Virus record (IMG/VR): IMGVR_UViG_3300013121_000025
Span: 1 to 64,000 of that record
Direction: 5' to 3' (one strand)
Length of the DNA: 64,000 nt
Source: a virus
Lineage: Duplodnaviria > Caudoviricetes
Shown here in pieces: positions 1-63,791 of the stretch (positions are counted from its first letter, which is position 1; each line of letters opens with the position of its first letter). The position numbers and the translations under genes were made by a program. Under the pieces are notes generated by a model. That model was not told where the DNA came from and did not search any database. It saw only the letters and a list, made by a program, of their open reading frames with translations.

Positions 1-39
1 ACTCACGACTCTTATTAGGTGCATGAGCATACCATACAC

Positions 40-860
40 CATCGGTCCTTTTCAATCTTGGTTTGAAAGGTCTGGTCTTCTTCATCAGGTCCTCACCCTA
101 CCGAATAGGTCATCCCACGTTGGTCACACCCAAGGTCCTTCTACATCCCTTGCACTACCCCACAATCAACAACTGCCTTACCGTTGATCATAGGTGCTTG
201 AACAAACCTCGACAAGGTCCTTCCCCTCACAGTCACACTCACTGCGGTCAACTTGTACTGATGATTGGTCTTGAACATCAGGTCCTCCTGATGTTTTCTT
301 TCCATTTGTCCATCCTCGCAAACCATACATGATAGGTCGGCAATGGATGAATGCCTATCCTGGTCCCCATCTCCCTCTTGAACTTCCAAGAGTGATTGTA
401 GGTCCTCAGAAACAATTCACACTTCCATAACGAATAAGGTTCATCAACAACCAATTTAAGGTCGTTGACACCTACCCTACTCATGTAGGTGTTCCTCCAT
501 CTCACGAAAGGTCTCTCATTCATATGATCATTATCCCTCACACATAGGTCCAGATCAACTGTCCCTTTGATGAAGAACCTCGAAGTTAGGTCTGATAGGT
601 TCTGCCCCTATGCCCTCCACCTCTTAACGAGGATGGTGCTCTCTCATGTCCGAGCTACAGATCTCGCAACAAGGTCCTTCATCAAACAAGTCCAGGTTCT
701 CCCTCTTCTCTTTTGGTCCTAGTATACATCATCTAAGGCCAAAAGAGAAGAGGGACCTTTCGGTCCCTCTTCAGGTCTTACTTCTGGTTCACTTTCAGGT
801 ACGGCTTGGCATTCTGATGGTAGGTCGAAGCACCTGCCAAGCTGGTCATGATTCCGGTCT
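40..860 (+). repeat. Dispersed, strand-biased GGTC / AGGTCCT motif array in a mostly non-coding region
   Basis: Manual count: about 22 GGTC on + in 1-780 versus 1 GACC. CAAGGTCCTTC at 131, 213 and 670; CATCAGGTCCTC at 83 and 276. Confidence 0.8.
747..772 (-). terminator. Intrinsic terminator after the 778..1191 gene
   Basis: GAAGAGGGACC-tttc-GGTCCCTCTTC 11-bp stem, followed on - by TCTTTT. Confidence 0.75.
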
Positions 861-1191
861 CGACAATCATGGCAATCAACTCCTTCCGACTCGCATTGGG
901 ATTGGCATCACACAACGCTACTACCTTCGCAAGCTTACCACCTTCCTTCAGAGGAGGCAACTTCTTCACAACAGTCACACCATCCTTCTTCACCTCAACC
1001 TTCTGCTTCGGAAGTTCAATTACCTCATCCTTCAAGTACTCAATCGGCTCTACCAAATCATCCTTCGGAATCGTCATCTGACCACCTTCCGGAAGTACCA
1101 GAACGATACTGTCCTGAAGAGTACTGTACAGATGACCGATGATGTCCACAACCTGACCATTCTCTTCGATCTTGGCTTTGATGAGTTGCAT
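778..1191 (-). CDS. Hypothetical early protein (Lys/Glu-rich; C-terminus possibly DNA-binding)
   Basis: AGAGGA RBS 9 nt before ATG at 1191 (ORF track starts at TTG 1200); tandem promoters upstream, terminator downstream. Confidence 0.75.
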   Translation of the reverse strand: MQLIKAKIEENGQVVDIIGHLYSTLQDSIVLVLPEGGQMTIPKDDLVEPIEYLKDEVIELPKQKVEVKKDGVTVVKKLPPLKEGGKLAKVVALCDANPNASRKELIAMIVETGIMTSLAGASTYHQNAKPYLKVNQK

Positions 1192-1233
1192 AAGGTTCAA
1201 TCCTCTTTGGTTGGTTTGTTTTAACTCAGGTAC

Positions 1234-1262
1234 ATCTTACAACAACTATCTTAGTCAGTCAA
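1234..1262 (-). promoter_or_regulatory. sigma70-type promoter
   Basis: TTGACT-N17-TAAGAT on -. Confidence 0.7.
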
Positions 1263-1298
1263 CATCTTTCTAACATTCTTGTCCTAACTAACAAGAAC

Positions 1299-1327
1299 AT
1301 TATACAACCAACTTGACTAACTATCAA
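1299..1327 (-). promoter_or_regulatory. sigma70-type promoter
   Basis: TTGATA-N17-TATAAT on -. Confidence 0.75.
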
Positions 1328-1423
1328 CAACTTTCTTTTCTTTACTTTCCTTCTCACCTCTTGATAGGAATCATTATACATGAAATAAAATTATTGACAA
1401 CTACTTTTTTCAATTATTTTCTG

Positions 1424-1453
1424 TTGACTTTCGACTCTAATATATCGTATAAT
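1424..1453 (+). promoter_or_regulatory. sigma70-type promoter
   Basis: TTGACT-N18-TATAAT. Confidence 0.65.
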
Positions 1454-1492
1454 GTAGTATTAATCTTAAGGGTAATTGTTATGAAATAATTG

Positions 1493-1521
1493 TTGACTTA
1501 CATAGTGATATGCTGTATACT
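1493..1521 (+). promoter_or_regulatory. sigma70-type promoter
   Basis: TTGACT-N17-TATACT. Confidence 0.7.
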
Positions 1522-1713
1522 ATAGGAATACGCAATCACTGTTGACAATAAGTGGAGCCCCTAAAAATATAATAATAAGGTCCCGTTGACCTAAGCTAAG
1601 CCCCTCAAGTGGCTTTCACTGTACACAATCACTGTCTTCAAAAATTTTTTCTATATTTTTTATATGTATAAACATTTTCCTGTAATAATACGTATTCACT
1701 GTTATGTTAATAG

Positions 1714-1742
1714 TTGAAATTGTTTTTGATTTCGATTATTAT
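1714..1742 (+). promoter_or_regulatory. sigma70-type promoter for the early + strand operon
   Basis: TTGAAA-N17-TATTAT upstream of the RBS (GGAGAG) of the 1810 gene. Confidence 0.55.
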
Positions 1743-1809
1743 AGTATATGATCTGAAAGAAATTTTCAGCAAAAATTATTGTGTATAAACTTTTAATGGA
1801 GAGTGTAAT

Positions 1810-62207: not shown

Positions 62208-63791
62208 TTATCCCATCATCATCGGTAATGGTTCATCATATCCACCATCGTCATCATCAGATTCTTCACCTGGAATTCTATATGTTTGTTTATCTACATC
62301 ATATGTGTATAACTTTTCAAATGCTCCTGTTTCATATGATGAGATTTCTTCTAAAATTCTAACCACAATTAAACATGCGCTGATACAATCATCTGTTGAT
62401 CCTAATTGTGCTTGATATGATCCGCGTTTTTTAACGAAGTTTTTAACTTCTGTGAATAGTATTTTTGAAAATAATGTGATTCTTCCACGCTCTAACATTT
62501 CTTTAAAGTTAATACAAGAACGAATCTTGGTACGAACGTTTGTATTCATTCCCATTTTGTTTCCGTTACTTTCTGATACAAGTTCAGCATAACTTGGTGG
62601 ATTCTCATCGTTCATATACAATGAAATTAATCCTTCACCTACACCATTATTTTCAATACTGAAATATGTAGTACATCCACGTTGTTCAAATACATTTATT
62701 AACCATTTTAGTTTTGTATATAACGTACTTGATGACATTGTGTTTGTTCGAATTTCGGCTACTTGTTCCATCGAAGGAAAGTGGAAACATTCAATTACAC
62801 TATAATCACTACCTGATCCAGTCGAAGGATCGACACCGACTAGATAAGTCTCGCCTGCTTTTGGATCTCTCCAAAACGTGAATCCGTTAATTACCTTTGA
62901 TGGAGTTCCTTTTACTTTATTTTCAATTGCTTGTGTAATTGTAGTATCAATTAATAAAGCATCAGAAGATAAGAATTCACAAAGAAATTCTTGCCTCCAA
63001 CGTAATTCCCCTATAATAGCAATTTGTTGTTGCTTGAATTTATCATCTCGGCCTGGTGGTTCGTTCCATTCTACTTTTTGAGATGCGAACGCAATTTGTT
63101 GTTCTGCTTCACCTACAATGTTTCCTGCTTCTGCGGATCTCCAAATTTGGGCAAATAAATTACTATCACCGTTAGGGGTTGAAGTTACGATGCAACTACC
63201 ACCTGTCGATAATGTAGGAGAAATAGAAGTCCAAAACGCGTCTTGCACATTTGGCGGAACAAAGGCAAACTCGTCTAAGAACAATAGAGAAATTGCCATA
63301 CCGCGACCAGAATCTTCTGATGTAGCTGTCGAGATGATACGTGATCCATTATCAAAACCAATAGCATGTTTATTCCATCCATCTTCTGTCACCCCTGGTT
63401 TTAGCCACGATGGTAATTCTTCATAAGCATATTGAATACGATAAATCATCTCCATCGCACCAGCGTTTTTGTTAGATGCGATTAGAATAGTTTTATCATC
63501 ATGAAACATTGCATACCATAACAAATATATTGCTGATGTTGCACTTTTTCCTGTTTGTCTCGCTGATAATACTACACTAAATCTATTCTCTTGGTATAGT
63601 TTTATCATTTTTTCTTGATATGGATATAATACAAATGGAATTGAACCCTTTACAGGATGACGTACTTTAATATATTTTTTACAAAAATATACAACGTCTT
63701 CTGCACAACGTTTTAGTTCTTCAATTTGTTCTAATGTATACGACGTGCGTTGATTAGCAGCTTTTATACGTTCATTCTTTTTTCTTGCCAT
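62208..63791 (-). CDS. terL: Terminase large subunit (T4 gp17-like)
   Basis: LYPYQ, ARQTGKS, LDEFAF, TSTPNG, QEFLCEF, GVDPSTG, DDC. Confidence 0.95.
   Translation of the reverse strand: MARKKNERIKAANQRTSYTLEQIEELKRCAEDVVYFCKKYIKVRHPVKGSIPFVLYPYQEKMIKLYQENRFSVVLSARQTGKSATSAIYLLWYAMFHDDKTILIASNKNAGAMEMIYRIQYAYEELPSWLKPGVTEDGWNKHAIGFDNGSRIISTATSEDSGRGMAISLLFLDEFAFVPPNVQDAFWTSISPTLSTGGSCIVTSTPNGDSNLFAQIWRSAEAGNIVGEAEQQIAFASQKVEWNEPPGRDDKFKQQQIAIIGELRWRQEFLCEFLSSDALLIDTTITQAIENKVKGTPSKVINGFTFWRDPKAGETYLVGVDPSTGSGSDYSVIECFHFPSMEQVAEIRTNTMSSSTLYTKLKWLINVFEQRGCTTYFSIENNGVGEGLISLYMNDENPPSYAELVSESNGNKMGMNTNVRTKIRSCINFKEMLERGRITLFSKILFTEVKNFVKKRGSYQAQLGSTDDCISACLIVVRILEEISSYETGAFEKLYTYDVDKQTYRIPGEESDDDDGGYDEPLPMMMG

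Follow-up and report, generated by a model that had tools for sequence, protein, structure and literature searches.

The first 780 nucleotides of the window carry a real, oriented and selected array of a short motif, which has the core GACC on the strand from which the region is read and may be a signal that controls early phage messages. By window we mean the whole stretch of 64,000 nucleotides that we analysed, which is bases 1-64000 of a 153,652-bp viral contig from IMG/VR, classed as linear and about 44% complete. The GC skew shows that positions 1-1200 are read on the minus strand, and the left end of the GACC field is cut off by the contig end (position 1). The field is as follows.

1..780, minus strand (sense): field of RRGACCW motifs, with 22 GACC that read GGTC on the plus strand

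The original prediction had drawn attention to 22 GGTC and a single GACC on the plus strand within 1-780, to three more GGTC by 860, and to the form GGTCC at 11 of the 22 sites, and our recount was identical in all these respects. The lone plus-strand GACC is at 754, within a hairpin arm. The longer repeats that had been picked out, an 11-mer at 131, 213 and 670 and a 12-mer at 83 and 276, are present as described, and neither has further copies in the 153-kb contig. In 5000 simulations, order-0 and order-1 Markov models gave expectations of 1.9 (maximum 8) and 5.2 (maximum 15) GGTC in 1-780, and the enrichment is significant against both backgrounds. With an order-2 model fitted to the region itself the expectation rises to 17.6, for 22 observed, but this figure is circular, because such a model contains the motif's own trinucleotides. 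The enrichment is also local: in a scan of the whole contig, every other stretch of 780 bp had at most six copies in either orientation, and coding strands elsewhere in the genome have 0.92 GACC/kb, compared with 28/kb in the tract. The compositional peculiarity of the tract was likewise borne out, with a GC content of 46.7% (34.2% for the rest of the contig) and an observed/expected ratio (o/e) of 0.38 for GpC and 0.43 for CpG, where both are at about 0.9-1.0 elsewhere.

The field adjoins a gene that allowed us to find it in other phages.

778..1200, minus strand: conserved early gene for a protein of 140 amino acids (aa), GC 48%, with homologues P0002-P0007

The relatives found via this protein comprise five independent close relatives and one further locus, L008, which is a near-duplicate of L003 (90% identical). 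If the motif matters, it was argued at the outset, related phages should keep it, and they do: gene-strand GACC fields stand beside the homologues of the 140-aa protein in the five independent relatives and in L008. In L003, L004, L005, L006 and L008 there are 12, 15, 12, 19 and 13 gene-strand GACC within 0.42-1.05 kb, from the stop codon on, for an order-1 expectation of 2-6 in those five fields and a rate of 1-2/kb elsewhere in the longer loci (L003-L005). The pooled logo has a purine at -1 (93/102), anything but C at -2 and T or A at +4 (85/102), with nothing further conserved, which gives the consensus RRGACCW on the gene strand. GACC(T) is the sole top outlier among k-mers (44 GACCT vs 5.6 expected), and the few inverse copies are mostly the opposite arms of hairpins. 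Five loci pooled have 32 AGACC and 39 GGACC among 80 GACC. As regards the decoy for a GGWCC-reading or G-modifying enzyme that was first proposed, GGWCC makes up only half of the window sites, and the relatives mostly have AGACC. In L017, a GC-rich distant relative whose protein is about 40% identical, 11 of the 12 sites are intercistronic and lie just after stop codons, in hairpins, or just before or after the Shine-Dalgarno (SD) sequence. Within the 140-aa gene there are 0-4 sites, and in its promoter almost none. A profile search of metagenome contigs with the 140-aa family gave no matches, and neither did a blastn search against phage records. As an observation apart, GpC and CpG are depleted in window 1-780 and in the L003-L008 fields (o/e 0.2-0.76), beyond the flanks and even with GACC masked, and the sense-strand cytosines of the fields are largely restricted to ACC.

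The tract had been described as non-coding, with no convincing coding sequence left of 778. This premise was wrong, because the minus strand has conserved small open reading frames (ORFs), each with a homologue in a related locus.

523..278, minus strand: ORF A, 81 aa, with six GACC; weak homologue at L004:5487-5693 (BLASTP E 6e-4)
278..141, minus strand: ORF B, 45 aa; homologue at L006:1033-1212 (tblastn E 2e-11, the match spanning a TAG)
85..2, minus strand: ORF C, first 28 codons of a frame that runs off the contig; homologue at L005:2977-3129 (50 aa)

ORF B starts behind a perfect AGGAGG SD, with GACC in the spacer between SD and AUG and a TGATG overlap with the stop codon of ORF A, and ORF C has a GAGGA SD and, again, GACC in the spacer. 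The 40-aa ORF of L003 and L008 (90% DNA identity) has 13 codon differences, and since all 13 are synonymous these tiny ORFs are under purifying selection. Scans of viral contigs with two of the small ORFs matched only the already known relative. An alternative genetic code was considered and rejected: the minus-strand frame that opens when TGA is read as Trp and TAG as Gln is not protein-like, and the standard code serves elsewhere in the phage, where ORFs reach 1397 aa. Two details of these ORFs deserve mention in their own right. An in-frame TAG closes ORF B at a position that is a leucine codon in the L006 homologue, and the 15 codons past this TAG stay in frame and homologous (window 93-143, minus strand; both end in ...TYSVG), up to a TGA at 95..93. 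The TAG could be a recent nonsense change, a site of read-through, or the outcome of conserving a nucleotide signal instead of the protein. ORF C and its 50-aa L005 homologue share a basic N-terminus (RPFKPRLK.T.G.WYAHAP), which we take to resemble the start of AP2 or integrase-type DNA-binding domains.

A conserved coding frame that accounts for the motifs had been named as the result that would dispose of the field. Conserved frames do exist, but they do not account for the motif. In 16 ORF entries from six loci (one L005 entry being mis-framed) there are 56 GACC, whereas within-ORF synonymous shuffling gives 32.7 (maximum 45 in 2000), and resampling from the fields' own codon usage gives 27.5; codons therefore fail to explain the motif, as had been supposed. 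The sites fall in all three codon phases, mostly as GAC/C and G/ACC, in line with the earlier remark on differing frames. Their density in non-coding parts is 26-42 sites/kb in all seven loci and varies from 1.6 to 33/kb in coding parts; the window has 25.7/kb in ORFs and 32.4/kb outside them. Individual sites are not preserved between homologous ORFs (three lie in window ORF B and another three in its tail, but a single one in its L006 homologue), and L008 gained one site by a synonymous double change from CGT to AGA. What is maintained is site count, not position. Between L003 and L008, 10 of 12 sites are kept at 90% identity, which is not significant alone and was not used as evidence.

The motif might nevertheless lack a function of its own and be a by-product of host-adapted codon choice (ACC, GAC) in very early genes, of shared ancestry of initiation regions, and of recent transfer from a GC-richer phage; or it might be a decoy or target in host defence or in the phage's own 7-deazaguanine modification. 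We find these explanations rather doubtful. It is true that the island is GC-richer than the genome, that the 140-aa gene uses CTG, GGT and CCG codons, and that the field ORFs strongly prefer ACC (61% of Thr codons vs 8% genome-wide) and GAC (42% of Asp codons vs 20% genome-wide). Yet the non-coding parts are the densest, the excess stays when codon counts are held fixed, the scarcity of sites in the 140-aa gene concerns the most codon-adapted gene, and the other small early genes of the same loci are at background levels. As for defence, AGACC is the site of the type III enzyme EcoP1I, but it makes up only about a third of the sites. Decoy for, or avoidance of, EcoP1I was thus rejected, the sites not being all AGACC (32 of 80 in the five pooled loci, and 11 of 22 are GGACC in the window).

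The position of the sites relative to genes and their signals is more informative. The window has the following elements around the gene and the ORFs.

747..772, minus strand: intrinsic terminator of the 140-aa gene, whose stem is GGGACC/GGTCCC
530..558, minus strand: sigma70-like promoter (TTGATC, 17 nt, GATAAT) ahead of ORF A, with GACC in its spacer
1234..1400, minus strand: three leftward sigma70-type promoters (11/12, 11/12 and 9/12 matches)
700..755, no strand assigned: second long inverted repeat, with arms of about 16 bp, directly after the terminator
273..296, no strand assigned: hairpin of 10 bp at the ORF A/B junction, in which the SD region is base-paired to ORF B's AUG

From their sequence, the promoters at 1234..1400, which are strong, would serve the 140-aa gene, and read-through would extend transcription into the field. 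Hairpins with GGACC/GGTCC stems also lie behind the 140-aa gene in L003, L005, L006 and L008, and these loci have stronger pairs of terminator and then promoter at the same place as the window's. The full plan in relatives starts with the gene and its terminator; a good sigma70 promoter then precedes between two and four ORFs, each of 40-74 aa, and the block closes with a bidirectional terminator, which faces convergent genes. The island is a short block of opposite orientation within runs of small early genes. The hairpin at 273..296 is terminator-like when it is read on the plus strand. Within this plan, 9 of the 17 small-ORF starts, across loci, have a GACC whose end lies 0-3 nt ahead of the AUG, and ATG begins 0-4 nt past the motif for 24 of 89 sites. 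Genome-wide, GACC is in the last 12 nt of just 5 of 172 candidate pairs of SD and ATG, one of which is ORF B. Other sites come right after stop codons or in terminator stems, and the non-coding parts have about one site per 30 nt.

The bias for the sense strand, the constant non-coding density, the placement at stops, terminators and SD-AUG spacers, the restriction to one operon and the overlay on coding sequence all tie the signal to expression of this operon. That the sites come after stops, in terminator stems and between SD and AUG, always on the sense strand, favours control of gene expression over DNA loading. We thus tentatively prefer, while granting it somewhat less than an even chance, the reading in which RRGACCW is a recognition element for coordinated post-transcriptional shut-off or repression of early messages. 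In this reading, an early mini-operon, conserved and encoded on the minus strand, has its variable tail of small genes in window 1-780. RRGACCW on the sense strand is a cis element of it, and in the closer relatives the motif is written into the ORFs as well, in all three codon phases. A sequence-specific factor, for example an endoribonuclease or a translational repressor, would act jointly on the early messages and inactivate the small host-takeover genes after their job is done. From the original proposal, an oriented motif field in a non-coding tract read by some factor, perhaps the adjacent protein, this retains the field, which is selected and conserved beside the homologues of that protein, and abandons the non-coding tract.

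Action at the RNA level and a shut-off function are inferred from the placement of the sites and from the logic of RegB and RegA in phage T4. RegB sites (GGAG/U) lie in early intergenic and initiation regions, some in coding sequence, and serve a coordinated post-transcriptional shut-off (PMC3014915, PMC1702504). The motif of the field is also on the sense strand and concentrated in intercistronic and initiation regions of early genes, and RegA operators are at initiation regions too. In contrast to RegB, whose motif GGAG is the SD itself, the field motif is GACC and is placed after the SD; the field is also far denser (about one site per 30 nt) and limited to one mini-operon. A middle promoter resembling the MotA box was considered as well and rejected, as there is no -10 element at a fixed offset from GACC.

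Several observations weigh against such a control of messages. We identified no nuclease or repressor, and there was no match to the RegB or RegA families in the 153-kb fragment (about 44% of the genome), a search that was uninformative in the case of the RegB profile (PF10715), since control genomes had no match either. The motif is mostly base-paired in the predicted folds of the sense RNA, where GACC has a mean unpaired probability of 0.26-0.41, no higher than the tract average. GACC is only mildly depleted on other coding strands (129 vs 155 expected), and a nuclease active throughout infection would be tolerated elsewhere. Finally, about ten sites (in L003, L005, L006 and L008) lie between the T-tract of the terminator and the next promoter, where read-through alone would bring them into RNA, and this favours a reading at the level of DNA.

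Such a reading makes the field an array of DNA binding sites for the 140-aa protein, used as an operator or roadblock that silences the small genes when enough of the protein has built up, or as a landing pad for another DNA transaction. Monomeric helix-turn-helix (HTH) domains on flexible linkers, joined by an SH3/Sm-like domain, would then coat the array. We consider this unlikely, though it is the main competitor of the control of messages. Gene and field adjoin in five independent lineages and in L008, the field begins at the gene's stop codon, and L003, L005, L006 and L008 have sites in the DNA upstream of the promoter, 2-4 bp before the -35 element. The protein has no Pfam or PHROG family match. 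In its AlphaFold model, a barrel of five strands and SH3/Sm-like type at the N-terminus is joined by a disordered, Lys-rich linker to an HTH-like domain of three helices at the C-terminus; the predicted local distance difference test (pLDDT) score is 72 for the whole protein and 91 for the C-domain alone. The barrel has weak matches to Hfq/LSm and to SH3-like C-terminal domains of integrases (E 0.006-0.16). The fold matches of the C-domain are almost all (winged) HTH DNA-binding domains, which would suit a binder of the array, but they are at noise level (Foldseek E > 1; Z 5.0-5.6). Searches of PDB, BFVD and ESM Atlas features with the full-length model gave only weak SH3/Sm-like matches and unnamed viral proteins. 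The last of the three helices (AGASTYHQNAK), the putative recognition helix, is invariant in the close homologues, where the GACC core is invariant too, and nearly so in about 197 representative relatives (50% clustering; the family is mostly viral). On this evidence from predicted structure, a nucleic-acid-binding role of the protein is plausible.

The link between protein and field is suggestive rather than obligatory, because L009, L015 and L020 have members with the same helix and no field downstream, and the field of L019 is weak; these contigs are short (1-13 kb). In a tblastn search with the protein, the only match was of the C-domain in Aeromonas phage Ahp1, which has no GACC cluster there. 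In Ahp1 the same C-domain ends an HExxH protein (SprT-like, in our own reading), a fusion that counts in favour of the array of binding sites. An array of binding sites would also have to do without sites in the protein's own promoter and without helical phasing: site spacings range from 5 to 204 nt, and Rayleigh tests at periods 10, 10.5 and 11 detected no regular or helical phasing (p > 0.6). Nor does DNA binding need a placement between SD and AUG or a strict bias for the sense strand. Two observations on the family stand apart from these arguments. The 140-aa gene has a GC content of 48-54%, far above that of the AT-rich phages that carry it, and this, together with its codon choice, suggests very high early expression or recent transfer. 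At L009:35-427, upstream of the family member, lies a gene for a protein of 130 aa; a similar helix (...AASYYQMLK) at its N-terminus may mark a paralogous HTH module.

The sites are even less well accounted for by a polar signal on the DNA that serves replication, packaging or entry (an origin or primase-loading zone, a pac site or the first-entering end), which we regard as very improbable. T7-type primases read 5'-GGTC on the template, a divergent promoter battery and a switch of strand skew are 0.4 kb away from the field, and the window's contig ends within the field. In T4, the origins oriE, oriF and oriG lie at strand-skew switches, oriE has direct repeats, and these can overlap coding sequence (PMC3016281). 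Like the 12-nt repeats of T4 oriE, the iterons of plasmids, sopC of F and the pac hexamers of P1, the field has repeats in the same orientation within less than 1 kb, beside a gene for a small putative DNA-binding protein. It differs from them in having no unit length, even spacing or helical phase. The neighbour, HTH-like in fold only, matched no Pfam or PHROG family, those of Rep, ParB and TerS included. Of the specific proposals made at first, origin iterons are contradicted by a conserved core of just 5-7 nt without regular or helical spacing. An iteron-type origin has a fixed, phased repeat unit of about 12-22 bp, whereas R-GACC-W is all that is conserved here, and we rejected it. A packaging signal fares no better: a canonical TerS adjoins TerL about 64 kb from the field, so that the 140-aa neighbour is not TerS, and a pac site was rejected, the array being neither in nor beside terS. 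A terminus or injection signal does not fit the relatives, which carry the field inside their contigs (it is internal in relatives of 35 kb and 197 kb, and contig breaks differ between loci). The placement in SD-AUG spacers would also go unexplained. Genes for ParA, tubulin, a Toprim primase, a T7-type primase zinc ribbon, and N6/N4 and Dam methylases were all missing from the sequenced fragment, which is uninformative given the share of the genome that it covers.

The ORF content of the island is mosaic, which raises the question of whether the sites serve its reshuffling. ORF A has its counterpart in the first ORF of L004, ORFs B and C resemble the second ORFs of L006 and L005, respectively, and L003 and L008 carry two unrelated ORFs. 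The sites might be the cassette junctions of a hyperplastic region, whose short ends (stop-GACC ... SD-GACC-ATG, and the module of terminator and promoter) mediate the shuffling of small ORFs between phages, much as promoter(early) stem-loop elements (PeSLs) do in phages of the T4 type, with the copies inside ORFs as scars of past joins. The mosaic itself and the concentration of sites at ORF boundaries are in its favour, as is the composite of terminator and then sigma70 promoter at the head of the field, which is like the PeSLs of hyperplastic regions in T4-type phages, where blocks of small ORFans that differ between relatives begin with a stem-loop and, behind it, a sigma70 early promoter (PMC2839356, PMC4122927). 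This order of stem-loop and promoter occurs in L003, L005, L006 and L008, and the window has it too, in its terminator (772..747) and a weaker promoter (558..530). PeSLs are tens of nucleotides long and occur once per cassette, whereas the field has a core of 5-7 nt in 12-22 copies, many of them in ORFs. A core of 4-7 nt, far shorter than PeSLs, is too short for homologous exchange, the flanks of most sites share only the R at -1 and the W at +4, and scars would produce neither the excess over synonymous permutation nor the gain by CGT to AGA in L008. Cassette junctions thus seem to us a quite improbable origin of the motif.

The tract could also have resembled the sponge RNAs CsrB and RsmZ, as in both a short motif is repeated some 20 times along a few hundred nucleotides of a single RNA strand. 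It differs from them in encoding conserved proteins and in a motif that is not GGA in the relatives. A sponge of this kind was rejected, the motif being predicted as paired and not displayed in loops, the ORFs being conserved, and Rfam having no match. The Rfam search returned only chance miRNA-like matches to the 700-755 hairpin and no family for the tract. Folding of the whole tract (20 shuffles) gave z-scores of -2.6 (sense strand) and -1.8 (antisense strand), with local hairpins only and no evidence for a large structured RNA.

Some features of the surroundings were noticed on the way. Counting both strands, window 1225-1750 has seven strong sites of sigma70 type within some 500 bp, and a promoter scan of 1-1900 found 13 sites for 4.9 expected. 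At L006:745-800, a perfect inverted repeat of 18 bp brackets the -10 region of the internal promoter (TTGTCA, 17 nt, TATAAT) and resembles either an operator-like palindrome or a PeSL stem.

The contig, with a GC content of about 34%, encodes a large terminase about 54% identical to the TerL of the Xanthomonas jumbo phage XacN1, and this gene is flanked by those of a head-closure protein, TerS and the tail tube, which is a T4-like arrangement. By this TerL and the gene order around it, the source is evidently an uncultivated jumbo myovirus of the T4 superfamily. The ORF of the TerS family (phrog_445, E 5e-9) lies upstream of TerL at about 64.6-65.1 kb of the contig, about 64 kb from the field. 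Beyond the window, at contig 63,795-64,544 (L012:796-1545, minus strand), a 249-aa ORF sits between TerS and TerL, directly upstream of the complete TerL (62208-63791), and matches the same ATPase part of the TerL profiles. By these matches it looks like an extra TerL-like ATPase paralogue or fragment.

Early blocks of ORFans are the least understood part of large phage genomes, and RegB and RegA of T4 are the only well-worked example of their coordinated shut-off. In the field described here, a motif is selected strongly enough to override codon usage and is kept in count, not position, across diverged relatives, which offers a clean and testable handle on early-gene control in an uncultivated lineage of jumbo phages. 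It also gives a widespread, uncharacterised family of phage proteins its first functional lead. Finally, it carries a caution for annotation, as a tract that seems free of ORFs and laden with repeats can be densely coding, with an overlaid nucleic-acid signal. RRGACCW fields might even be an undescribed regulatory device of phages, a dense one-strand address label across an early mini-operon, coding sequences included, that is read by the adjacent protein with its SH3-like domain and AGASTY helix, although we judge this fairly unlikely. If it were true, the family of about 197 members would be new sequence-specific nucleic-acid binders that time the genes of host takeover in jumbo and T4-like phages.

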